In this document: one piece after another, positions 764-13,912 of the stretch
Numbering within the stretch: position 1 is the first letter of the stretch
Layout of the letters: the number at the start of each line of letters is the position of its first letter
NCBI GenBank assembly: GCA_043818055.1
Contig: JBDRGF010000104.1
Location: 1-54,917 of the forward strand
Origin: Pseudomonadota bacterium
Lineage (GTDB): Bacteria > UBA10199 > 2-02-FULL-44-16 > JBDRGF01
Direction of reading: 5' to 3'
DNA: 54,917 nt
Notes under the pieces: model-generated
The model's input: only the letters and a program-made list of their open reading frames with translations
The model's database searches: none
Told to the model about the DNA's origin: nothing
Position numbers and translations under genes: made by a program

Positions 764-1627
764 CTAATCTATCAACGTATCTTCCCCTTTGCGGACTTTT
801 TCTAAACGGATGCCCACCTTTTTTTGAGCCTCCTTTTTTGCCAGGCTGATCACATCCACGATCATGGTTGTCGCGTTGTCCTTTGCAATAATCTTTCCTG
901 ACGTGGAAGAGCGTTCAGGAGGTGCGGCCTTGATAGCCTCCATCATCTTTTCGATCGCCTGCTTTGGGCTCTTGATTTTCATAAAAGATTTGATTTCATC
1001 ATCGGTGAGCACCTTCGTTACGCCATCAGTGCATAGAAAGAAGCGGTCGTTTTTATAATATTCCATAACGTGTATGTCAGCACGTGCCAGCTCATATTTG
1101 CCGCCCAGACATCTTGTCACGATGTTTCTATTCGGATGAGTCCTTGCCTCCTTCTTTGAAATTTTTTCATCCCTCACCATCTGATCCACCTTTGAGTGGG
1201 AGCGGGTGATCTGTCTTAAGCTCTCTTCGCTGTACACATAGCAGGGCGAATCTCCTGCATTGACGACATAGGCCTTTTTATCCCTGAACAGCAAAAAGAC
1301 CAGGGTGCATCCCATCTTATCGAATGCGAGCCTTTCGCTCTCATCGACGATACAGTCATGGATTTCTTTTATGGCAGCCCGCAGGATTTTGTCATAGGCA
1401 TTCATTCCTGAGCTATGGGCAAATACAGCATCGATACTATTTACGAACTTATGAGCCAGATGAGAGGCTAATCTGCTCGCAACAGCACCCCCTTCAAAAC
1501 CGCCCATTCCGTCGGCAACGAGATAAAGCCCCGAACTCTCATCCGAAAAGTAAAAATCCTGATTATCCTTTCGCTCCATCTGTTCTGTTGAGGCATAGCA
1601 GCGAATCGATAGATTCTTTACCGTCAT
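764..1627 (-). CDS. PP2C/PPM-family Ser/Thr protein phosphatase
   Basis: Motifs RKDNQD, VADGMGG, NAGDS, HPNRNIVTRCLG, LCTDG, DN; ATG at 1627 follows a GGGGA SD-like sequence. Confidence 0.93.
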   Translation of the reverse strand: MTVKNLSIRCYASTEQMERKDNQDFYFSDESSGLYLVADGMGGFEGGAVASRLASHLAHKFVNSIDAVFAHSSGMNAYDKILRAAIKEIHDCIVDESERLAFDKMGCTLVFLLFRDKKAYVVNAGDSPCYVYSEESLRQITRSHSKVDQMVRDEKISKKEARTHPNRNIVTRCLGGKYELARADIHVMEYYKNDRFFLCTDGVTKVLTDDEIKSFMKIKSPKQAIEKMMEAIKAAPPERSSTSGKIIAKDNATTMIVDVISLAKKEAQKKVGIRLEKVRKGEDTLID

Positions 1628-1689
1628 AAATTTTCCCCTTTTTTTGACCGGATAATTATAGTACAATCGGCCTCGTGTGAAAAGGAAGA

Positions 1690-1904
1690 ATTATACCGTG
1701 TCAGTTTGATTTTTTTACACTGATGATCGGCACAAGTGCTCGTAACAATTTAATATTATCATATTTCCACTGATGGAAATTAAATTGACGAAGCACTAGT
1801 ACCTCATCAATCAAATTTTCTATACTGAGGAAGGGCACAAGTGCTCGTAACAATTTAATATTATCATATTTCCACTGATGGAAATTAAATTGACGAAGCA
1901 CTAG
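1690..1904. mobile_element. Two tandem copies of a ~109-bp MITE-like element
   Basis: Identical 71-bp blocks at 1729-1799 and 1834-1904. Unit 1796-1904 is bounded by CTAG with imperfect terminal inverted repeats. A third copy lies at 19741-19849. Confidence 0.7.
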
Positions 1905-1918
1905 AAAAAGGGGGTAAC

Positions 1919-2962
1919 ATGGCACAGATAGAGGGATTAAAAACAGAGGATGCTGGCGGCGCATTGCAAAATTACGTAGTCATCAGAGACCTTTCTGAAG
2001 ATGAGGAGCCGAGCCATTGGACGATGTCGCAGCTGGCGATGGATATTCGCACGGATGAGAAGGTGCTTATCTCGCGTCTGAACAAGACCAAATTTATAGC
2101 GCACGGTTTTCGCGAGCAATCGGGATCGGAAACGGAAGAGGAGAGGGAAGCTATAAAAGCGCAGGCGATTGCTAAATATCAGGGAGAGCTGAATCACTTT
2201 GTTAACCTGAACAAAAAGGTTGTTGGTCTCTCTCATCCTGCCATTGCAAAGGTGATAGACTTTGGGGTGGATCAGAAGAACATGGAGGCCGTTGTTACGG
2301 TTGAATATGTTGACGGCGCTCCCGTCTTTGACGTAACGAACGGCATGCCAATACTCGGCATGATTCCGATATTCCTGTCTGTCCTTGAGGGGCTCAACTT
2401 CATGCATTTCAGGGATATTCTTCATCTGAATCTGAAGTCGAAGAGGGTGCTGGTCAAAGCCGGATTTCCATCGGTCGCCAAACTCACAGATTATGGATAT
2501 GCGCTGAGCGTAGGAAAAATTCCCGATGGTGTTTTTGGATCGGCCATATATTCGGCCCCAGAGGTGATCAGGGGAGAGAAGGATAAGATCGGGGTTGTTT
2601 CGGATTTGTATTCCTTTGCCGCTCTCGCTTATAGCTGCATGGCAAGAGTCTTTCCATTTCCTGAAAGGGAAAACGCAGAGCATAGTTATGAATTGAAAGA
2701 GATTGTTCATAGGGAAGAGGAACCTCTCAAACCGTCCCTTCGAAATACCCTTATGATTCGGAGGGAGTGTGATAAGGCGGCAGCAGATAAAATAGCCAAA
2801 CTTGAAGACATCATCATGGCTTTGTTAAAAGCGAGTCCTGATGACAGACCACATCGAACAGCTTGGGAGCTAATTTCCAACATCTCAAGCTTATTCAAGG
2901 AAGAGCTGGAGAAGAAGAGGCTTGGGGATGCAACGATTACCAGGAGCGCATCGATAACCTGA
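1919..2962 (+). CDS. Ser/Thr kinase-fold protein, probable pseudokinase
   Basis: HPAIAKVIDFG, VEYVDG, DYG, GSAIYSAPE and SDLYS are present, but the catalytic loop reads HLNLKSKRV. Confidence 0.85.
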   Translation: MAQIEGLKTEDAGGALQNYVVIRDLSEDEEPSHWTMSQLAMDIRTDEKVLISRLNKTKFIAHGFREQSGSETEEEREAIKAQAIAKYQGELNHFVNLNKKVVGLSHPAIAKVIDFGVDQKNMEAVVTVEYVDGAPVFDVTNGMPILGMIPIFLSVLEGLNFMHFRDILHLNLKSKRVLVKAGFPSVAKLTDYGYALSVGKIPDGVFGSAIYSAPEVIRGEKDKIGVVSDLYSFAALAYSCMARVFPFPERENAEHSYELKEIVHREEEPLKPSLRNTLMIRRECDKAAADKIAKLEDIIMALLKASPDDRPHRTAWELISNISSLFKEELEKKRLGDATITRSASIT

Positions 2963-2969
2963 TTATAAT

Positions 2970-5900
2970 ATGGACGTTTCAAAATTATCGCAGGGGACGT
3001 TGATAGGTCACAACCGGATTGAAGATGTTATCGGTCGTGGTGGTTCGGGTATTGTCTATTTGGCCGTGGATTTGGAACATAATCGCGAAGTAGCGCTAAA
3101 GTTTCTGAATAAGGAATTTGCGCGTGCTTCATACAAAACCAAACTTGCGGAAAAAAAATTGTCTCCCGAAAGCTTTGAGGAAGAATTTTCAAAACATTAC
3201 GAATCGATTACAAGCCGCTTCAAAGAGGAATATCAGAAACAGCTGATCGGCGTTCACCACCCAAACATTGCACAGGTTTATCAATTTGGTTTTTTTGAGG
3301 GACACTTTTATTTTACTACTGAATATATCAAAGGATACGACATCTTTGCCTTTACAAGAGGAATGTCGTGCGGGTCGTTGACACCGCTTTTCATCCAAAT
3401 GCTCGAGGGGATTCAGTTCATTCATGATAACGGGTTGTTGCACTACGATATTAAGCCTGAAAACGTTCTCATAAAAGAGCTTGACGGAAGGCCTGTTGTA
3501 AAGATCATCGATTTTGGAATTGCCACTGCTATATCCAGTAGCAAAAAAGAGCAATTCGGTACTCCGATGTTCATTCCTCCTGAGGTGATTCTGGGATGGG
3601 AAGACAGGATCGGCGTATCTTCCGATCTCTTTTCTGCCGCTGCTCTCATGTACTATTGCATTGTAAACACCTATCCCTTTTTAGACAGATATGGGTGGGG
3701 AGAAAATACCAAAAAACTCGCTAAGATCATTGAAAATGAACTCCAGCCGAAAGCGTTGAGAAAACTTAGCACATCCATTCCGGAATACCTTGATACGATA
3801 GTTATGAGGCTTTTGAAAAATAATCCTGAAGAGCGGTTCTACGGCAGTGCCAGGGCAGTGATCAATGCATTGAAAACACGAAGTCCTGATGATTTTAAAG
3901 AGATTGAGGAAATTAAATCTTCTTATCTCATACCGTATAAACACATCGGGATGGACTCCGTTCTCGGTGAAATCAACGACAAAATAACCCTTCTCGCGAA
4001 GGGAGAACAATCTCACTCATATGTCTATTGCATATGTGGAGAGAGGGGAATGGGAAAGAGCCATTTTCTCCAAAAGTTGCGAGAAACGGCAGAGACAAAA
4101 TCGGATGCGATTTCATTATACAATATCAGGTTTCCTGCGGACAGGGAGTGGATCACGATTTGGATAAATTACCTTTCAAACGAACTCTCTGAAAACAGAC
4201 ATCCTCTGATTATTTTGATAGATGATCTTCATCTGTTAAATTCCGGCAATAATTCAGCTGACGATCATGGAACGATACATAAGATGATTTCCAGTTTGAT
4301 CCGTTCTATCGCTGAACGAGTATCGCATCCGGATTTATATGAAATGATAAAACCTGTTCTTTTGTGCTATACAACTCTTCCTGACGACATTCCCAATGAA
4401 AAAGAGGTTTTAAATGTGCAAAGGATTGTTGGGCTTAAATCTCTTTCCGAAAATGGAATAGCGGATTTTCTCAAATCAACTGTCGCGTTTAAAAATAAAG
4501 ATATCAAGTCCGATTGGGTCAAAGACCTCCTGCGTTACACAGATGGTATCCCAGGTGAACTTCAGGAACACTTAATTAAGCGTGACAGCCAGGGTATTCT
4601 TTTCGATCTTGAAGGAAATGTGCATCTTGTGGAATCGAGTGCTGCTAAAAAGCAAACGATTGTCCCGCAGACAACGGAGAATCGCCTTTTAGGTCTGTAC
4701 CATGGTTTGTCAGCCCTAGAAAAAAAGTTGATAGATTTTTTATCAGTTTGGTATTTTAAATGGCTTTCCCCGGATATTTGTCTCTCAGATATTCAACAAT
4801 TGTTCCCGATCGTGGGACTTCATCAGGTTTTGATGAATCTTCGTCAAAAGGAAATCTTATCTCATGATGGTTGTATCTTTCGTAATCCTTATTTTCCCGA
4901 TTTAATATACCGGTCGATTGATGAGAATGAAAAACTAAAGTTCCATGCGATGATCGCCGAATACCCTGGAGGGGAATCCTTGTCACAAGAAGCAGCCCTG
5001 TTACACGCGGGCTTTGGAGGTGATGGCATCGATGCTGTTTCAAAGTTGATAAGGCTGTCGAGAAACCTGATCTTCATACATGGAAATGTATTTTTAGCTC
5101 TGGAGCTTTTGAATAGGGCGTTGAATCTATGTAGGCCAGAAAACAGAACATTGAAGATCATGAGTCTTTATACGCAAACTCTTATGATGCATGCTTTAGG
5201 TTATGCAGGAAAATATAAGGAGGCTTACGATATTTACGATAGGACTCTGAACTTATTCAAGACGGCAAACTATTCACAAATCTGGAAGCTGCGCCTGATC
5301 ATCGCTATCATGCCGTCATATCTTGCTTTGCAAAGATACGATGAAGCATCTGAAATCATCAAAGAGGGTCTCAAAATTGCGGATCTGGGACAATATCCAA
5401 CATATCATATTTTGCTTCTCAATTGGGATGGACGTATCAATTTTAACCGTCGGGCCAAAGATGAAAAATATCTTTTGAAAGCAAAGGAAATTTATGAAAA
5501 AAGTTCCAGATTGGAAAAGAGTTTGTCCAGAGAACTCCTCAGTCGCATAACGAACAACGAACTCGGACAGGTTTTGCTTGCTCTTGGAAAAAACAAGAAA
5601 GCTATAAAGGAGATGCAGAAGAAGCTTGTCAGATGTGAAGCAAGTGGAAATTCGCTTCATATATTGCTGGCGAGACTATCTCTGGCAGAGACTATGCGGA
5701 ATTTACGCAAGTATTCACTCGCTTTTGAATATTGCCAAAGGGCACTGGAAACCGCGAAGAAAATCGATTTCGGTCCCTGGCCTGCCAATATATATTTTGT
5801 CATGGCGGCATCCTATCTCGACTGGAATAAATATGACGATTCAATTGAACAGAGCAATAAATGCCTCTCTGCTTGCTCGTTGATGGAAAACGAAAATGAA

Positions 5901-6290
5901 CGAAACGAGCTCATGGGAAGCGCCTGGGTTAATATCGGTAATTGTTACAACGAAAAAAAAGAATGGGAAAAATCCCAAAAATATTTCGAAGCTGCTTTAG
6001 ATTGCGGAGCTGTTTTATTTATGAAGGTAAGAGCAAAACTTGGTTTGGCAGAAGCAAGTCTGAATACGATGAATTTAGAAAAATCGATGGCGGAGCTTGA
6101 CGAAGTTGACGAGCAGCTTGCACGCCTCCCTGAAATTAAAAGGGGATTTAAATTTGTCAGCAAATTTTTGCGGTATCAGGTTTTAATGAAAATGGAAAAG
6201 GAATCGGATGCAAAGGAACTCTTACCCGAATTAAAAGCACTGGCCAGTGACAATCCGGTTTTTCGAAAGGAATACAAAAGAATTTTATGA
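2970..6290 (+). CDS. Ser/Thr kinase fused to a P-loop NTPase and TPR-like helical repeats
   Basis: GRGGSG, VALK, HYDIKPEN, DFG, GTPMFIPPE; Walker A GERGMGKS; Walker B ILIDD; C-terminal repeats such as AWVNIGNCYNEKKEWEKSQKYFEAAL. Confidence 0.9.
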   Translation: MDVSKLSQGTLIGHNRIEDVIGRGGSGIVYLAVDLEHNREVALKFLNKEFARASYKTKLAEKKLSPESFEEEFSKHYESITSRFKEEYQKQLIGVHHPNIAQVYQFGFFEGHFYFTTEYIKGYDIFAFTRGMSCGSLTPLFIQMLEGIQFIHDNGLLHYDIKPENVLIKELDGRPVVKIIDFGIATAISSSKKEQFGTPMFIPPEVILGWEDRIGVSSDLFSAAALMYYCIVNTYPFLDRYGWGENTKKLAKIIENELQPKALRKLSTSIPEYLDTIVMRLLKNNPEERFYGSARAVINALKTRSPDDFKEIEEIKSSYLIPYKHIGMDSVLGEINDKITLLAKGEQSHSYVYCICGERGMGKSHFLQKLRETAETKSDAISLYNIRFPADREWITIWINYLSNELSENRHPLIILIDDLHLLNSGNNSADDHGTIHKMISSLIRSIAERVSHPDLYEMIKPVLLCYTTLPDDIPNEKEVLNVQRIVGLKSLSENGIADFLKSTVAFKNKDIKSDWVKDLLRYTDGIPGELQEHLIKRDSQGILFDLEGNVHLVESSAAKKQTIVPQTTENRLLGLYHGLSALEKKLIDFLSVWYFKWLSPDICLSDIQQLFPIVGLHQVLMNLRQKEILSHDGCIFRNPYFPDLIYRSIDENEKLKFHAMIAEYPGGESLSQEAALLHAGFGGDGIDAVSKLIRLSRNLIFIHGNVFLALELLNRALNLCRPENRTLKIMSLYTQTLMMHALGYAGKYKEAYDIYDRTLNLFKTANYSQIWKLRLIIAIMPSYLALQRYDEASEIIKEGLKIADLGQYPTYHILLLNWDGRINFNRRAKDEKYLLKAKEIYEKSSRLEKSLSRELLSRITNNELGQVLLALGKNKKAIKEMQKKLVRCEASGNSLHILLARLSLAETMRNLRKYSLAFEYCQRALETAKKIDFGPWPANIYFVMAASYLDWNKYDDSIEQSNKCLSACSLMENENERNELMGSAWVNIGNCYNEKKEWEKSQKYFEAALDCGAVLFMKVRAKLGLAEASLNTMNLEKSMAELDEVDEQLARLPEIKRGFKFVSKFLRYQVLMKMEKESDAKELLPELKALASDNPVFRKEYKRIL

Positions 6291-6369: not shown

Positions 6370-7137
6370 TCAGATTCCGATTTTTAGCCAGTCGTTGAGC
6401 AAAAACTGGGTGCGACCGATCAAAAGTGCGATACGTCCCATGACTGTGTAGGCAAATGATGCGCCGAAGGTAACCATCAGCACCCAGATGCCATAGCGGG
6501 AGACTTTACCGAAAACACCTTTGTGTTCTTTGGAATAGAAAAAATATACAAGGCTCGAGAGCACTCCTGTGATCAGAACCAGGGCCGAAAAGCTTGCTCC
6601 CCAGTTGATCGAGCCATTTTCGAATATGATGATAGGCACGATCGAGGAACGGATCTGAGTTGTGAAATCAGATGCCAGATAGCCTAAGAAATTGAGGCCT
6701 GCTGCATAACCGACTGTGAATGCCAGTGCCCATCTGGACAACCAGTTGTGTTTCTTTGAGAGCCTCATGAGAAGTAAAAAGCCGAGAGCTAACGATATGA
6801 GGTATAAATAGTTTTTTTCTGCTGTGATGCCGGGAAGAATTTTTTGCATTGTTTCCGGAAATATCTTGGGCAGGCAGTTTGTCATGATAGTGCTCCAGAA
6901 GCCCATATACATCCAGTATGCCGCGGAAACGCCCACAAATATGTGTTCTGCCAATTTATAAAAGGGATTGTCTTTATAAAGAAAGCTGAAGACTGAAAGT
7001 GTAAAGAAGACGGAGAGCCAAAGCCCCAAGACATCTTTGTTGAGGGATAAAGGCATAGCGCCTGTGGCTACACGATATACCACAAAGCCTACAAATACCA
7101 AAAGAATTGCATACATTATAATTTTTTTTGCACTCAT
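6370..7137 (-). CDS. Polytopic membrane protein of unknown function (GlmL-like cluster)
   Basis: About 7 hydrophobic segments; motifs LYKDNPFYKLAEHIFVG and FGASFAYTVMGR; GGGGA SD. Confidence 0.8.
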   Translation of the reverse strand: MSAKKIIMYAILLVFVGFVVYRVATGAMPLSLNKDVLGLWLSVFFTLSVFSFLYKDNPFYKLAEHIFVGVSAAYWMYMGFWSTIMTNCLPKIFPETMQKILPGITAEKNYLYLISLALGFLLLMRLSKKHNWLSRWALAFTVGYAAGLNFLGYLASDFTTQIRSSIVPIIIFENGSINWGASFSALVLITGVLSSLVYFFYSKEHKGVFGKVSRYGIWVLMVTFGASFAYTVMGRIALLIGRTQFLLNDWLKIGI

Positions 7138-7149
7138 GGTTCTTCCCCT

Positions 7150-8010
7150 TTAAACTAAAGTTTTTCTTTTCCTGTCTATGAAATATGTGATGTTTCCTAT
7201 CAATATAAAGATAACGATCACAATGTGAGCGATTGTCTGTGGTCCCCAACGAAGAATTCCTATATGAAGTTTTGGATCTGCAAAACGCTCAAATTTTTTG
7301 GCTATCAGTGATTCATATTCAGCAGCTCCCTTGATGCCGCCGAGAAGACCGTTGAGCTGTTTAGGATAGTAGGGGAGGTATAGTGTAGTTTGTATTGCGG
7401 TTGTACCTGCGACAAACGGAATGTCCAGTGGATCGGTGCCAAACTGGATCCATTCCTTGATGCCAGGCCAGCCTGCGCTCATTCCAACGACGATATCGAA
7501 GTCGGAGAGATTTTTAACCCCCTGAGTCATCGGAATGTTTCGTATAGAGACGTTGTTGACATCGGTGGGATAGAGTTTTTCAAGATTCGTGGCGATGACA
7601 GGTATCACACCCTGGCGACCCGCTTTATACCCCAGGTTCACGAAATCTGTTCCATATTTTTTGTCGGGAAACTCGGTCTTCAAAAGGTTTTCAATCAGGT
7701 TTGCTATCATCTGCTGTCCTGTTGGCCAGAGTGTGATGAAATAAATTTTGAGATTATTCATCATCGCGTGACGCATTACCGAAATTGCCATAGGGCCGAT
7801 CTCAGGCTCTGATGGCGGATCGTAATCCATTGCGATAAGGACCTTCGAATTCGGCGGTAATTTGTCGATAAGTTCAAACATGTCCTTTGTCATCTTAGTT
7901 GGAAACTCAGGGAATGTGAGCTTGAAGAGGAGCGGTATGATGACAGACAAAGCGATGAAAACGAAAATGATACGCCTGTCGAGATTAATGATTTTGTCGA
8001 GTAACTTCAT
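7150..8010 (-). CDS. Membrane-anchored protein with N- and C-terminal TM helices, related to the C-terminal domain of 8746-9912
   Basis: TM - soluble alpha/beta domain - TM layout; GLLGGIKGAAEYE motif. Confidence 0.8.
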   Translation of the reverse strand: MKLLDKIINLDRRIIFVFIALSVIIPLLFKLTFPEFPTKMTKDMFELIDKLPPNSKVLIAMDYDPPSEPEIGPMAISVMRHAMMNNLKIYFITLWPTGQQMIANLIENLLKTEFPDKKYGTDFVNLGYKAGRQGVIPVIATNLEKLYPTDVNNVSIRNIPMTQGVKNLSDFDIVVGMSAGWPGIKEWIQFGTDPLDIPFVAGTTAIQTTLYLPYYPKQLNGLLGGIKGAAEYESLIAKKFERFADPKLHIGILRWGPQTIAHIVIVIFILIGNITYFIDRKRKTLV

Positions 8011-8022
8011 CTTTATTCCCCT

Positions 8023-8709
8023 TTATTTTTTTTCATCAGTTCCAAGATATGCGGATTCGATCCCAAGTATGAGTTTGAGCGATGTAGAAACAACTCCTAG
8101 TGCTATACCTATCATGATTGCCCTCTGTCCTGCGGTGTTCGGGAAGCTCAAAATCCAATTGAAGAGTTCGGGAATCTGCAGGAAGGAGAGTGATTCAGGG
8201 AGCCAGCTTGTCAGAGCTGTTCCCACAAATGTTCTTCCGAGGAGTATTATAAAAGCGGATACGAGTAGTATCGTTGCTTCCCTGTTTTTGGCCCTGAATG
8301 CCCTGTAGGAGGCGCTGGCTACAAAAAAAGCGAGCAACGAAAACATGGTGGATGCCAGCGGTGTGTATACATAGTCGAAAATGTAGCCGGCAAGAGCGTT
8401 CGGATCAGATATTTCTCCGGCCCATCCCCCAGGATTGCCGATTTTGAACATGCCCGCAGCCATCATAAGTAGGAAGGAAATTATAGCGACAAGGCTGTAT
8501 CCCCATCCCTCGTGTTTCTTGTAGGTTTTGGATATGTGATAGAGTAAGAGGTTGCCACCGCCGAGAATAAATGCGAATGCCTGTAAGACATTAAACCAGA
8601 CCGAAAAATCCTCTCTCAATGAACCAAACGGCTCCCTGGGAATAAATCTTGCGAGTATAAATATAGTGCCGGTTATAAAAGCTATTAACAGTGGAATTTT
8701 CTTTTTCAT
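8023..8709 (-). CDS. Polytopic membrane protein of unknown function
   Basis: About 6 TM segments; motifs MFSLLAFFVASASYRAFR and AGQRAIMIG; GGAG SD. Confidence 0.8.
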   Translation of the reverse strand: MKKKIPLLIAFITGTIFILARFIPREPFGSLREDFSVWFNVLQAFAFILGGGNLLLYHISKTYKKHEGWGYSLVAIISFLLMMAAGMFKIGNPGGWAGEISDPNALAGYIFDYVYTPLASTMFSLLAFFVASASYRAFRAKNREATILLVSAFIILLGRTFVGTALTSWLPESLSFLQIPELFNWILSFPNTAGQRAIMIGIALGVVSTSLKLILGIESAYLGTDEKK

Positions 8710-8745
8710 TTTTACATCTCCCGGATAAGGTGTTTATCGATCAAA

Positions 8746-9912
8746 TCAAACAGTTGTGAAGAATTTGATCACAAAATCAGTTATCTGATTAAAGACCGCA
8801 GAACCGCTGTAACTTGCTATCGTTGCTGATATAGCTCCAAGGCCGATAACAAACATAGCAACAAGCTTGCCTAAATCCTGTCCCTTTAAGCTGCCGATCT
8901 CCTGTGGGCTTTGTGAGAGATAGGCGCTCGCCGCAAAGAGCTCCTCGCCGATCAGCGTATAGTCGCAGGCAGCGATGAAGAAGGGTAACTGTGACGGCAT
9001 AGCAGTGCCGGCAATCTGAATAGCGCCGACAGAGTTTCCAATTTCGGCCAGGATTAGACTTTCTGCAAAGAACGCACCCATATAAAAGCAGGTTGCTGGT
9101 TTGTCCCTGACCATGAGTCCGTTCACATGGGCGACAAAGGCAAATTGCTCGTCGGTGACGTAAAAGATATTTTGCTCGTTATAGGCATCCGGCCTTCCTG
9201 CAGCAAGAAACGCCCCTTTGACTATCTCCCTTGCTGTTGTCATGACTAGAGAGCGGCAGGTCGGTACCATGATCGGGGTGTCATATTCGGCAACCTTTTG
9301 AGATACCATGCTTAAGATGTTCAATCCTGCCATCGTCTGGACATCATCCATATCCTGAATTCCGGGGATATAGAGGATCGGCCTTCCCATCTCTGTTGCG
9401 CGCCCGATAGCCTCTTCTATAGCGTCGAGTCCTGCGATTTTTCTTATATAGTATTTCTTTCCCCTTCGGCTTGTTTCTATATAGTAGAGGATGGCAACGG
9501 TGATGATCAAAGCCAGTATCAGGAAGTAGGTCATCTTCGTATCAAACCACTGAGGTTTGGATATGACGGAGGCATCGGCATCTATAAAGGCCTTTGTTCC
9601 CCATTTGCTGATTAGGGCTATTCTGTAAAAGTATTCAGTTCCATCTATAGTAGTCTTATCTGCATATGTAGTCTCTCCGGGTTCGATAGTTGCAACAGTT
9701 GTAAAAGGTGCATCCTTCGCATCCCCTCTTAAAATCTCTATGGTGACGGGAATGAATTTGGCATCGGTGATATCCCAGGAAAGGGTGACCGATTTCCCCC
9801 CATCATCCGGAGTATCTATGGCCTTAAGCGTACCATTTACTTTCGCAGAAGATACCAGAAAGACAGGAATTGATAGAATTACAACAGCTGAGATTAACAG
9901 GATTTTTTTCAT
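8746..9912 (-). CDS. Signal peptide + FN3-like domain + TM + DUF6754-like domain membrane protein
   Basis: MKKILL signal peptide; DTPDDGGKSVTLSW...YADKT...EYFYRI is FN3-like; IRKIAGLDAIEEAIGRATEMGRP...CDYTLIGEELFAASAY. Alternative in-frame start at 9930. Confidence 0.8.
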   Translation of the reverse strand: MKKILLISAVVILSIPVFLVSSAKVNGTLKAIDTPDDGGKSVTLSWDITDAKFIPVTIEILRGDAKDAPFTTVATIEPGETTYADKTTIDGTEYFYRIALISKWGTKAFIDADASVISKPQWFDTKMTYFLILALIITVAILYYIETSRRGKKYYIRKIAGLDAIEEAIGRATEMGRPILYIPGIQDMDDVQTMAGLNILSMVSQKVAEYDTPIMVPTCRSLVMTTAREIVKGAFLAAGRPDAYNEQNIFYVTDEQFAFVAHVNGLMVRDKPATCFYMGAFFAESLILAEIGNSVGAIQIAGTAMPSQLPFFIAACDYTLIGEELFAASAYLSQSPQEIGSLKGQDLGKLVAMFVIGLGAISATIASYSGSAVFNQITDFVIKFFTTV

Positions 9913-9945
9913 TATTGACCCCCACTGCATTATTGACCCCCACTG
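9910..9945. repeat. Exact 18-bp tandem duplication of SD + start codon
   Basis: CATTATTGACCCCCACTG x2 (minus strand CAGTGGGGGTCAATAATG). Confidence 0.9.
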
Positions 9946-10065
9946 ATTGATCGGTGTGAACTATAATAATTATGAAGAGTTATCAAGATAAAAAACAAAA
10001 AATCGTATGTAACATCTAAGCGCGTAGCGTCGTACGTTAAATATGAAGCGCAATAAAAAGGGGTA

Positions 10066-10107
10066 TTACGTTTCACGCTTCACGCTTCACGGGTGGACGC
10101 TTCACGG
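10066..10107. repeat. Heptamer tandem repeat (TTCACGC)n
   Basis: TTCACGC TTCACGC TTCACGG ... TTCACGG, intergenic. Confidence 0.7.
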
Positions 10108-10112
10108 GTTTT

Positions 10113-11237
10113 TTACGATTCTATAATCTCAATATTCGCCCTTGGTATCACGACTTCGTTGTGGTCGATTTCGACTTTGCAGACTCTTGCCATGGATGAG
10201 CTCTCAAGTCTGACTAGTTCGGATGGTAATTTGGTGACGATGCCGATTTTGCCGAAGTAGGGTTCCCTGATTATTCTTACTGAGCTTCCAACTGTGATTC
10301 CGTTTGTTGAGATGTTGCGGATCTTGAACTCCTCCTGATACATGTCGCCAACAGGTATTATGATCTCAGGTCTCAAAACGCCTGCCCTGATCTGTGTCGC
10401 GCCGTTGATGCATGCAAATTTACCCTCGTTTTTCTTGAGCAGGTTGTAAGTTCTGCTGCTCATCTCAATGCTGCTGAATCCCTCAGTGATGATAACCGAA
10501 ATTCCCAGCTTTTCGGCCCCTGTGATAGCAACCCCGATATCGGCTTTGATGAAGCTTCTTAAATCCTGATCGTCGATTCCGCCGCTGATGATACCTTTTA
10601 CGCCAAGCGATACGGCCTTTCTCAGGGCATCGGCTGTTACTATTGAGCCTCCAACTACTATCTTTCCTCTGTGCTCCGACTTTATCTTTGTGTGATCGAG
10701 CGGTTCATCGGGGGAGTTACATGCGAAGACTATATCGCCATTTGTCTCTCCGCCGATTCCAAATATTCCCTGAATTAAAGCCGCGTGTGTCTGGATCTTA
10801 ACCCCTTCATGGGGAAAGACCTCTGTGATGACCCCGTCGATATAAGCTTTTACCTGGACTGGGGTAGGGGGAGATCTTAAAATAACCTGTCCCGTTATTG
10901 AAGATATACTCTCAATCTTTCCGTCGATCTTCGAGTGAGCCTTTGATTTAAAAAAACCGAAGAAACCTTTAGTCTCGGCGATCAGCTCATTTCTCTTAAC
11001 TTCGTCCCCCTCTTTTTTTAGCATGGCACCCATGACTTCGTCGGGGCTGACATTTAAAATATGTGAGAAATTCATAGGAAAGACATTCCCCGGGAGATAA
11101 GTCTCTGCAACGATGTCATCGGCTTTTACGATATCTCCCTTTTTAACCACTACTTCGCCCTTGATGGGGAGTATCCTGCTTTTTATTATGAGCTGATTCT
11201 CTGCAACTTTGAGCCCTGGGGTATATGCGTGTGCCAT
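10113..11237 (-). CDS. Uncharacterised protein with barrel-sandwich hybrid-like motifs and a C-terminal KOW-like motif
   Basis: VVVKKGDIVKADDIVAE and MLKKEGDEVKRNELIAE; ITVGSSVRIIREPYFGKIGIV. Confidence 0.75.
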   Translation of the reverse strand: MAHAYTPGLKVAENQLIIKSRILPIKGEVVVKKGDIVKADDIVAETYLPGNVFPMNFSHILNVSPDEVMGAMLKKEGDEVKRNELIAETKGFFGFFKSKAHSKIDGKIESISSITGQVILRSPPTPVQVKAYIDGVITEVFPHEGVKIQTHAALIQGIFGIGGETNGDIVFACNSPDEPLDHTKIKSEHRGKIVVGGSIVTADALRKAVSLGVKGIISGGIDDQDLRSFIKADIGVAITGAEKLGISVIITEGFSSIEMSSRTYNLLKKNEGKFACINGATQIRAGVLRPEIIIPVGDMYQEEFKIRNISTNGITVGSSVRIIREPYFGKIGIVTKLPSELVRLESSSMARVCKVEIDHNEVVIPRANIEIIES

Positions 11238-11248
11238 AGTCCTATCCC

Positions 11249-13069
11249 TTATTTTGTTATGTTTTGCTGATAAGCTTCAAACTCTTTTAGCCATGCGGAC
11301 TGTTTTTCAATTCTCTTTCGTTCTTCCGTTGGAATTAAGAGTGGCCGTCCGCGACAATCGAGTATTAAGCCGACTGTGCCGCCTCTGACAGTTGTTTCAA
11401 CGAGCTTGCCCGATCCATTGCCAAGGTCAAATCCGCGAGCAGGGTAAGCTTTGAGTTGAGCAGTTTTGCCATCCGGGATTCTTATCAGTCTGAGACTTCC
11501 AAAGGCCATTTCCTCTTCTATCACCTTCCCATCAGGCATGGTGAGATGGAATTTCAGACATGTCTTTCCCTCTTTTCCGACGCCTGTCGGAGTTACTGAG
11601 GTGCCGAGATAGATCATACAATCTTTTTTGAAAACTTCAGTTGCAGCATTTTTGTGTACCTGAGTTAAAACCCCCAGATGTGGCATCATGAAGATGCTGT
11701 CCTTTGCAAGCAAAGTAATATGCTCGGGCAGGAAGGAATCGATAAGCATCATCGCAGTCTGTTCCATTCTCGGTGCGTGGGAAAGGACTCCGCCCGAAGC
11801 GACCAGTAGATTTAAATGAGGCATTTTTATCAGCGTTGAGGCGGAAGCCTTCTGGTCGAAGACATCCCCGATCGTTCTTTGTTTTTGCACGCCTTTCAAC
11901 TCAGTTGCAAATTCCTTATGTTGTTCAAAGGCGAGTCTCAAAGCCTCTCTTGCGACTGCCTGTTCCATGATCAGATCTTCGATTGTCTGTGGAATCGTTG
12001 TCGGCCTGATCATCTTGTTCTTGATGCAGTTTCTTAAGTTTCTCTCGTCAATTTTGAAGGGAATCCATCTGATGATATTTTCAAGTCCTGCTTCAGCTAG
12101 CACGTTCGAAATAGAATAGCTCATTCCGAGATTGGCCGAGACTGTTCTGTTGAAATTATTGTCGAATACGCTGAAGACGTCGGTGGTTGCTCCGCCGATA
12201 TCTACGCCGACCGCGTTGATGTTGTCCTGTTCTGCAATCGTCTTCAGTATCAATCCAACAGCGGCAGGGGTTGGCATGATCGGCGCATTTGTCCACGACA
12301 TCAGCTTTTGATATCCCGGTGCCTGTGCCATGACATGTTCGAGGAATAGATCGTGGATCTTTTCCCTTGCTGGGCCTAAATTCTCATATTCAAGGACTGG
12401 CCTTAAATTAGCGCATATATAAAGCTTGGTCTTTTTTTCAAGCGATTTTGAAACTTCAGGGATCGCCATCTTGTTGCCAGCGTAGATTACAGGAAGCTTA
12501 TAGGAGCTGCCGAGCCGTGGCGTTGGATCCGCTGCGGATATGAGTTCAGCGAGCTCGACCACATGTGTTTTTGTACCGCCATCTATGCCTCCTGATAGCA
12601 GGATCATATCAGGTCTCAGCTGGCGAATCTTTTCTATCTGCTCATAGGGAAGTCTTTTGTCGTTATGCGCTATGACATCCATGACGATCGCTCCAGCGCC
12701 CAGAGCTGCTCTCTCAGCGCTTTCAGCAGTCATAGACCGCACCACACCGGCCACCATCATCTGTAAGCCTCCTCCCGCGGAGGAAGTGGAAATGTAGATA
12801 TCGCATCCGACGCTTCCCTGAGCTGGTGTGATGATCTTTCCATTTTCGTCGATAAGCTTTCTCTTCGAGAGCTCGCTTATCTCAGCTACGGCATTTAAGA
12901 CTCCGAGCGTGACATCTTCAAAGGGGGCTTCAACGGTAGTTGGAGCCTCTCCTCTGTATGTCTGACGATAAGAACCATCGATCTTTTCGATCAGGATCGC
13001 CTTGGTCGTCGTTGAACCGCAGTCGGTGGCAAGGATAACTCTAATCTCTTTGTTTTTTTTCTGGTTCAT
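11249..13069 (-). CDS. Glutamate mutase L (GlmL/MutL)-like ASKHA-fold ATPase
   Basis: Phosphate-1 DCGSTTTK, SSAGGGL, LLSGGIDGG, phosphate-2 VDIGGATTDV, adenosine SGGVLSHA; start 13069 (ATG) or 13084 (TTG). Confidence 0.85.
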   Translation of the reverse strand: MNQKKNKEIRVILATDCGSTTTKAILIEKIDGSYRQTYRGEAPTTVEAPFEDVTLGVLNAVAEISELSKRKLIDENGKIITPAQGSVGCDIYISTSSAGGGLQMMVAGVVRSMTAESAERAALGAGAIVMDVIAHNDKRLPYEQIEKIRQLRPDMILLSGGIDGGTKTHVVELAELISAADPTPRLGSSYKLPVIYAGNKMAIPEVSKSLEKKTKLYICANLRPVLEYENLGPAREKIHDLFLEHVMAQAPGYQKLMSWTNAPIMPTPAAVGLILKTIAEQDNINAVGVDIGGATTDVFSVFDNNFNRTVSANLGMSYSISNVLAEAGLENIIRWIPFKIDERNLRNCIKNKMIRPTTIPQTIEDLIMEQAVAREALRLAFEQHKEFATELKGVQKQRTIGDVFDQKASASTLIKMPHLNLLVASGGVLSHAPRMEQTAMMLIDSFLPEHITLLAKDSIFMMPHLGVLTQVHKNAATEVFKKDCMIYLGTSVTPTGVGKEGKTCLKFHLTMPDGKVIEEEMAFGSLRLIRIPDGKTAQLKAYPARGFDLGNGSGKLVETTVRGGTVGLILDCRGRPLLIPTEERKRIEKQSAWLKEFEAYQQNITK

Positions 13070-13406
13070 CGTTTTCTCTTTCAATTCTTATTATTAGTTC
13101 TTCAATGCTGTTTCTATGTTCAAGCAGTTTGGAAAAATGATCATATTCGTCGCAGCTCAGTATAGAATCAACAATCGGCCGGAAAAAAACCAATGTCTGA
13201 CTGCCGATGTAATTCAGCGGTTTTACGCTTTCAAGGGCAATCACTGCAGGGATGACAAGCCCTAGTTTGACTATCTTCCGCGCAATTTTATCCATCAATT
13301 CATAATCGTAATCGGTGAAGTGGTATTCACCCTTTTTTTCTATGGCAAAGGCGCGTTTAAAGCCATCCCAAAAATTCTGTTTTTTTTCAGCCGACTCTTT
13401 CATCAC
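13041..13406 (-). CDS. Small hypothetical protein
   Basis: 121 aa; overlaps the start of the GlmL-like gene; motif LESVKPLNYIGSQ. Confidence 0.7.
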   Translation of the reverse strand: MMKESAEKKQNFWDGFKRAFAIEKKGEYHFTDYDYELMDKIARKIVKLGLVIPAVIALESVKPLNYIGSQTLVFFRPIVDSILSCDEYDHFSKLLEHRNSIEELIIRIERENDEPEKKQRD

Positions 13407-13420
13407 CTTGCTTGTTCCCC

Positions 13421-13837
13421 TTAAAGCGTTTTTCTACCTTGATCGATATTTCTCACTATAAAATCAAATGCATCGTCTGGTGTTGTTTCGTTTGTCAAAA
13501 TATACGTACCTCTGAATTTTTCGAGGCGTGAACGAAATGCAAAAGGGGAGAGCAATATGCCATTTCTGTCCCTGTGTGCGCTTTTAAACTCGTTCCAACT
13601 CTTGTTTATGCTTCCTAACGGATAAGTAACTACCAGGCCACTTCCATCAAGACTGACATTTGCAGGGAGGATAAAACGCCTCTGTTCAATGAGTAATATG
13701 ATAAGAATTAAAAATGCTAAGATGTAGCTCCGCATTAACACCAGCGCAAGCGCGATGAAGAGGGTATTCAGCGTGATCATTAAAATTGCTTTATTGATCT
13801 TCTCTTTGAAAGGCCATATGTGCCAGGTGATTTTCAA
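13421..13837 (-). CDS. Two-TM membrane protein with a PH-like C-terminal domain
   Basis: Two TM helices followed by beta-rich LDGSGLVV...KSWNEFKS; TTG start is uncertain. Confidence 0.65.
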   Translation of the reverse strand: MKITWHIWPFKEKINKAILMITLNTLFIALALVLMRSYILAFLILIILLIEQRRFILPANVSLDGSGLVVTYPLGSINKSWNEFKSAHRDRNGILLSPFAFRSRLEKFRGTYILTNETTPDDAFDFIVRNIDQGRKTL

Positions 13838-13882: not shown

Positions 13883-13912
13883 AATCTATAACGGATTTTG
13901 TGATTAAGTCAA
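13883..13912 (-). promoter_or_regulatory. Putative sigma70 promoter for the GlmL-like cluster
   Basis: TTGACT-N16-TATAGA or N18-TAGATT on the minus strand. Confidence 0.4.

Follow-up and report, generated by a model that had tools for sequence, protein, structure and literature searches.

An apparently undescribed eight-gene system pairing a MutL-family ATPase with a four-protein membrane module

We analysed a stretch of 54,917 nt (the window) of contig JBDRGF010000104.1, from a genome recorded as Pseudomonadota bacterium (GCA_043818055.1), and found that eight neighbouring genes, g1 to g8, are one conserved, widespread and apparently undescribed system that occurs in many uncultured phyla. 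Its core is an actin-fold ATPase of the MutL family (g3), a partner with a predicted swivel domain (g4) and a membrane module of four proteins (g5-g8); g1 and g2 are likely accessory. Tentatively, and at a little under an even chance, we read the eight genes as an ATP-driven importer of an undescribed kind, the coupling and the substrate being inferred from anatomy and co-occurrence. The genes, numbered in transcription order, are as follows (aa, amino acids; TM, transmembrane).

g1, 13421..13837, minus strand: 138 aa; two hydrophobic helices and a small domain with weak bacterial-PH similarity.
g2, 13041..13406, minus strand: 121 aa; no TM segment predicted, no family.
g3, 11249..13084, minus strand: MutL/GlmL-family ASKHA ATPase, 606-611 aa, with a C-terminal extension of ~110 aa past the Pfam domain.
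g4, 10113..11237, minus strand: 374 aa; hybrid-motif beta domains, a swivel beta/beta/alpha domain (~152-296) and a KOW domain (~311-374).
g5, 8746..9930, minus strand: 394 aa; signal-like N terminus, FN3 domain (outside), TM helix, DUF6754 alpha/beta domain (predicted cytoplasmic), TM helix.
g6, 8023..8709, minus strand: 228 aa; six predicted TM helices, no family.
g7, 7150..8010, minus strand: 286 aa; TM helix, Rossmann-like alpha/beta domain (predicted outside), TM helix.
g8, 6370..7137, minus strand: 255 aa; at least five predicted TM helices, with conserved Glu, Arg and His.

An earlier note on this DNA, made from the sequence alone, had described eight co-directional and mostly tightly spaced genes, which the open reading frames (ORFs) bear out. 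All lie on the minus strand within 6370-13837 and encode 138, 121, 611 (606 from the ATG at 13069), 374, 394, 228, 286 and 255 aa. From g1 to g8 they are spaced by 14 bp, an overlap of 44 bp, and then 11, 182, 36, 12 and 12 bp. Searches of Pfam and NCBIfam gave no family above cut-off for g1, g2, g6, g7 and g8; a bPH_6 match was seen in 6 of 23 g1 homologues (best E 3.4e-4). An 18-bp direct duplication at 9910-9945 spans the ribosome-binding site and start of g5, resulting in two in-frame ATGs.

The genes keep company across distant lineages. From a search with g5, the best 80 of 155 loci were kept, with records from Zixibacteria, Ignavibacteria, Eisenbacteria, Planctomycetota, Calditrichota, Marinimicrobia, Acidobacteriota and others. 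The order g5-g6-g7-g8 is kept in all 59 loci with at least 4 kb downstream, and g3 and g4 stand in the same locus in 36 of the 52 with 4 kb upstream. Since natural single-protein fusions of g3 and g4 exist (L053, L075, P0127 and P0206), these two genes form one unit. The genes g5-g8 form a second, up to three copies of which stand beside one g3-g4 pair: at least two g5 copies were counted in 16 of the 80 loci, and three in 7. Where g3-g4 is unlinked, g1 and g2 often remain alongside it. All eight genes are together in L198 and L200, in the order g1-g2-g5-g6-g7-g8-g3-g4 and with a g5 that lacks FN3. In a survey of the genomes behind 50 of the 80 loci, mostly incomplete assemblies, every one carries MutL. 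The co-occurrence and synteny on which the earlier note had staked its proposal were therefore found.

Co-occurrence does not require physical linkage. An even sample was drawn from the phylum of G034 (Planctomycetaceae by record name), the central genome being excluded. Among its 90 genomes, 24 carry both DUF6754 and MutL, 2 DUF6754 only, 1 MutL only and 63 neither; the corresponding Fisher value of 2e-18 is overstated because kin are not independent. The MutL-only genome carries a true mutase locus, with its genes in the order S-E-L. In G148 and G157, a single contig carries both the MutL and the DUF6754 gene, separated by 0.28 and 0.5 Mb. The two units are thus kept and lost together even if unlinked. 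Within its own phylum, the source genome is the sole carrier (1 of 73), neither family reaching cut-off in the 72 relatives.

The ATPase g3 matches PF13941 (MutL) with an E value of 1.7e-127. As the earlier note had read for a protein of ~606 aa, the phosphate-1, phosphate-2 and adenosine motifs of the ASKHA fold are intact (DCGSTTTK, DIGGATTD and SGGVLS); a weak Hydantoinase_A match is also present. The protein stays below the cut-offs of the NCBIfam models NF040745 (230/475 bits), NF040744 (209/600) and TIGR01319 (170/204). It is 68-75% identical to module-linked proteins and 25-32% identical to mutase-linked ones, and a quick, long-branched tree places g4-linked MutL proteins apart from mutase-linked ones. 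Across loci the ATPase core keeps 78% identity, a level of conservation like that of a housekeeping gene. Sequence searches of solved structures with g1, g3, g4 and g7 returned nothing significant.

The partner g4 shows weak sequence matches to a hybrid motif and a KOW domain, both confirmed by its predicted model (predicted local distance difference test, pLDDT, 85.9), which also contains a swivel beta/beta/alpha domain. The swivel domain matches RraA (Z 9.3, root-mean-square deviation, rmsd, 3.2, 128 aligned residues), enzyme I of the phosphotransferase system (PTS; Z 9.1, rmsd 2.7, 107 aligned) and rifampin phosphotransferase (Z 8.8-9.1), with aconitase X tying in Z. The g4 profile recovers 1034 clusters at E 1e-30 or better. 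In 117 diverse sequences, conservation is concentrated in QG.fG.GgE, TG.E, TEGFG, TQ.RAG..RPE and the KOW arginines. Because no His column exceeds 35% and no Lys column is conserved in these sequences, the swivel domain is probably neither a phosphohistidine nor a biotin/lipoyl carrier.

A known motor offers a parallel. The passage of PMC7674605 on glycerol dehydratase reactivase describes an alpha subunit made of an ATPase and a swiveling domain, from which ATP hydrolysis frees the partner. Since the swivel domain predicted in g4 lacks a conserved histidine, the g3-g4 pair resembles, in its architecture, a dehydratase-reactivase motor split in two. Dehydratase reactivase chains are not among the 50 fold matches listed for the g4 model or for the g7-g8 model described below.

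In the membrane module, g5 belongs to DUF6754 (PF20539; E 2.7e-121, 404 bits against a cut-off of 27) and carries an FN3 domain. Hydropathy and charge bias over the alignments point to an inner position for the DUF6754 domain and, with less force, to an outer one for that of g7. Modelled in a natural g7-g8 fusion (P0121), the g7 domain is predicted to be Rossmann-like, with its best match to MTH777 (Z 10.0, rmsd 3.2, 138 aligned) and Z values of 8.4-9.2 to RCK/KTN domains; the g8 half of this model has a pLDDT of mostly 40-60. The earlier note had called g7 a relative of g5. Compared by full profiles, the two matched over a single membrane helix (probability 18.7 and 10.2), and their soluble domains alone scored 14.0, within the 9.2-19.2 of shuffled columns, so that this kinship is undetectable by profile comparison. 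Likewise, neither internal repeats in g6 or g8 nor kinship between g6 and g8 was found.

Across the membrane proteins, Arg, Glu, His, Asn and Thr are conserved and Cys almost never. Conserved polar residues fall in predicted helices of g8 (E64, R125, R135, R235 and R242), g6 (R196) and g7 (Q258, H262 and N273). Where one g3-g4 pair stands beside up to three modules, the inner face is conserved and the outer face is variable: between copies at the same locus, the cytoplasmic DUF6754 domain is 63% identical, the g7 outer domain 35% and FN3 32%. Distances among the four subunits correlate over 74 modules (rho 0.81-0.87), much of which shared descent alone explains. The g5 ectodomain ranges from absent to ~1000 aa. 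At L207 (7394-11212) it reaches ~1000 aa without a Pfam family, and g6 proteins at L048 (11239-13089) and L066 (11187-13136) carry insertions of 300-400 aa, also without a Pfam family; all of these are possible capture domains. As for long g7 forms, one fusion was found, and long Chloroflexota proteins were seen in the ESM Atlas, their sequences not being retrieved.

In the mechanism we propose, the cytoplasmic actin-fold ATPase g3 and its swivel partner g4 would drive the four-protein module g5-g8. ATP turnover by g3 would shift the swivel domain of g4, as in glycerol dehydratase reactivase. The pair would dock on the conserved cytoplasmic DUF6754 domain and its action there would open a passage through g6 and g8 and through the TM helices of g5 and g7, with solutes chosen by the variable outer domain of g7 and carried inward. 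A complex prediction of g4 with g5 (residues 121-394) and g6, run without folded controls, scored 0.11 against a mark of 0.32 and speaks neither for nor against such docking. An amino acid, a short peptide or another small charged organic nutrient is the most likely solute, judging by the charged helix residues and by the genes for glycine cleavage and OPT found next to some loci; this is the weakest step of the proposal.

The earlier note had the ATPase recruited to a multi-subunit membrane machine. That it travels with the module stands, and transport is the likeliest role of such a machine, on the grounds of anatomy and co-occurrence. Its view that the machine is neither of the ATP-binding cassette (ABC) nor of the PTS type holds: no ABC family match was found on the eight proteins in Pfam or NCBIfam, there is no enzyme II (EII) family match, and g4 has no conserved His. 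To our knowledge, known primary importers run on P-loop ATPases, P-type ATPases or phosphoenolpyruvate, and a transporter driven by an actin/Hsp70-fold ATPase would, if true, be a new class. Somewhat further below an even chance than import itself, the system may represent such a class of primary transporter, in which an actin-fold ATPase and a swivel domain, a motor that descends from or is ancestral to the chaperones of B12 enzymes, mechanically drive interchangeable membrane modules with alpha/beta domains on both faces.

Several observations weigh against the importer. The data do not tell import from export. No known transporter fold backs it, because neither g7-g8 fold search has a membrane protein among its 50 matches listed (the g8 half being a low-confidence model) and the ESM Atlas offers nothing resembling g6 beyond the g6 family itself; transporter folds and B12-binding domains are also absent from the matches listed for the g4 and g7-g8 models. 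As modelled, the g7 domain has a generic Rossmann-like fold, unlike a classical binding protein. Linkage of g3-g4 to the module is common and not the rule, since among 80 metagenome loci retrieved by a g4 search, g3 is close to g4 in only 35 of the 50 with 2 kb upstream, and g5 is nearby in 20 of the 58 with 2 kb downstream. MutL and g4-like proteins without a module in the fetched stretch occur at L097-L100, L201, L202 and L204. Finally, neighbours differ by lineage (glycine cleavage, OPT transporter, fatty-acid synthesis, Tol-Pal and housekeeping genes) and so give no steady clue to the substrate.

The proteins at L097 (4008-6611), L098 (2918-5497), L099 (7963-10998) and L100 (4779-7403) are stand-alone MutL and g4-like fusions of 859-1011 aa, in which the g4 match stops before the KOW domain. 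A radical SAM gene of the AmmeMemoRadiSam type adjoins the L097 fusion, and a similar ORF and yjbQ adjoin that of L100. L201, L202 and L204 hold a further MutL paralogue and a strongly diverged g4-like gene of ~390 aa, with no module genes nearby. As for glycine cleavage, gcvT-H-PA-PB precede g1 in L101 and similar genes stand there in four more loci; being absent from the window and from most loci, they were taken as lineage context and set aside as a partner.

The same parts could also serve a machine that exports, remodels the envelope or signals across the membrane, with an outer sensor, an inner output and the ATPase as a switch, and no import. The alpha/beta domains predicted on both faces would suit it, as would the tie of the g7 domain with RCK/KTN gating domains, the wide range of g5 ectodomains and the large insertions of some g6 proteins. 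However, neither a regulator nor a biosynthetic gene recurs steadily next to the system, and several diverged modules per genome with one ATPase suit solute-specific modules better. We therefore regard this explanation as unlikely.

Group translocation is a little less probable again. Here g3 would be a kinase and the g4 swivel domain would pass a phosphoryl group to DUF6754 or to the incoming solute, as in a PTS run on ATP. The best swivel matches do include phosphohistidine domains (PTS enzyme I and rifampin phosphotransferase), hybrid motifs are present, and Hydantoinase_A, to which g3 is weakly similar, is a family that activates substrates with ATP. On the other hand, RraA and aconitase X, which tie in Z, carry no phosphate, and with no His column above 35% in g4, a carrier role would require one of the conserved Thr or Glu residues (T239, T251, T281, E242 or E252).

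Two further explanations turn on B12. The first, an importer of corrinoids, supposes that the ATPase keeps an ancestral ability to prise cobalamin from a Rossmann-like domain, here DUF6754. MutL/GlmL is indeed called a chaperone reactivating glutamate mutase in a figure legend of PMC4682846. Methylmalonyl-CoA mutase or a B12 cap domain is present in 49 of the 50 module genomes, a count that does not discriminate because B12 use is common (PF02310 in 12 of 14 control genomes). There is no DxHxxG motif in g5 or g7 and no B12 gene as a recurring neighbour, and outer domains that share 35% identity among three modules point to several solutes. A corrinoid importer is hence improbable, slightly more so than group translocation.

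The second explanation, that g3 works in trans as a normal reactivase of a B12 mutase and that its proximity to membrane genes is incidental, draws on the source genome itself. No mutase or B12-binding match was found on this contig in four genome-wide family searches, as the earlier note had stated for the window. Its word "orphan" holds for the contig and fails for the genome, where contig C153 carries the B12 aminomutase genes kamDE. There, the lysine fermentation run kdd-kamA-kamD-kamE-kce (L081, 8259-13949) contains no reactivase gene, and g3 is the only MutL of the genome; a second job of g3 in trans is possible in this organism. The same run has no kamB/kamC-type gene inside and is flanked by hopanoid genes and a NuoEF-like gene.

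Beyond this genome, methylmalonyl-CoA mutase occurs in 36 of the 50 module genomes, whereas lysine/ornithine aminomutase alpha occurs in 1 and glutamate mutase E above cut-off in 1. None of the three mutase families was found in 14 of the 50, including the chromosome record behind L059. Moreover, the lone aminomutase genome among the 91 of the G034 phylum sample lacks MutL. Together with the division of sequence identities noted above, this supports the view that the ATPase accompanies the membrane module rather than the mutases from which its name comes, in line with the independence that the earlier note had anticipated, and makes a plain reactivase in trans very improbable. A glutamate mutase locus of the G034 phylum (L206, 7221-10300) has the gene order S-E-L, against S-L-E in reference loci.

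The earlier note had also entertained an energy complex. One of the Rnf/Nqr type, redox or ion-pumping, finds an echo in the g4 hybrid domain (Z 7.3-7.5 to RnfC and NqrA over ~65 residues) and in Mrp/complex-I-type genes upstream in 7 loci, but is unlikely, and the least probable of all, because the membrane proteins are nearly without conserved Cys or His (g5 C322, g7 H262 and g8 H205 only), the RnfC/NqrA match is confined to the barrel, the subunits show no conserved flavin-attachment site, and no Fe-S or flavin-binding family match was found in Pfam or NCBIfam.

Two other features of the region lie outside the eight genes.

Sigma-70-like site TTGACT-18-TAGATT, 13883..13912, minus strand: upstream of g1; 9/12 matches, at chance level.
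Dispersed repeat of ~30 bp, 10071..10112, no strand assigned: in the g4-g5 gap, outside the system proper.

The first had been offered as a possible promoter. It is one of 14 sigma-70-like matches against 13.8 expected and carries no weight as evidence; a terminator scan was likewise at chance level. The repeat has 42 further matches on 25 other contigs of the genome and looks like an intergenic element of the repetitive extragenic palindromic type. A recent foreign origin or misbinning of the cluster was rejected, as its GC content (0.45 against 0.43) and tetranucleotide distance (33rd percentile) are ordinary and a genome-wide repeat lies inside it. The contigs of a single RNA run span 28 of the 30 bins between window positions 1000 and 20000, the cluster like its flanks, with carry-over of DNA possible. 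Adjoining the cluster, positions 764-6290 hold genes for a phosphatase-like protein, a kinase-like protein and a 1106-aa kinase-AAA-TPR protein, and a short duplicated stretch lies near 1750-1950.

The earlier note knew of no functional description, and we found no paper on DUF6754 or on the family accessions; supplements lay outside the search, and genome or proteome tables or subscription journals may mention these genes. As whole words, "glutamate mutase L" turned up only a ThiC paper, the broader GlmL matches listed being unrelated, and a search combining ASKHA, transporter and planctomycetes gave none. What is apparently new is the eight-gene system as such, with a function that is predicted only. 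Our contributions are the even-sample co-occurrence with its unlinked cases and internal mutase control, the reactivase-like reading of g3-g4 and the finding of kamDE in the source genome. In poorly cultured phyla the system is frequent (27 of the 91 genomes of one phylum sample), and databases call at least some of its ATPases "glutamate mutase L", a name that falsely suggests a B12 mutase. Working out the system would also reveal the role of the GlmL family, of which no solved relative was found by sequence.

By the features examined, the system stands outside the GlmL accessory, ABC, PTS and Rnf/Nqr families. With GlmL/MutL (NF040745, TIGR01319) and Or-4 (NF040744), g3 shares the ASKHA motifs and the Pfam family PF13941. 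It differs from them in being ~110 aa longer, in its low identity of 25-32% and in being paired or fused with g4; reference GlmL proteins sit between glmS and glmE, whereas g3 is beside no mutase. With the alpha subunit of glycerol/diol dehydratase reactivase (PDB 1NBW), described in the same passage of PMC7674605 as an Hsp70-like ATPase with a swiveling domain that binds and releases the partner, g3 and g4 would share the domain pair; here the pair is divided between two genes, hybrid and KOW domains are added, and there is a link to membrane proteins. As in ECF (energy-coupling factor) and other ABC importers, one energising unit would serve several substrate-specific membrane parts, but the ATPase is of the actin fold and not a P-loop ABC protein, and g6-g8 have no Pfam or NCBIfam match. 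The PTS likewise combines a membrane module with a soluble partner that has swivel and hybrid-motif folds; unlike it, g4 lacks a conserved His, EII family matches are absent and the energy source would be ATP. Finally, g5 is a member of Pfam DUF6754 (PF20539), a family without an assigned function whose domain in g5 is predicted to face the cytoplasm.

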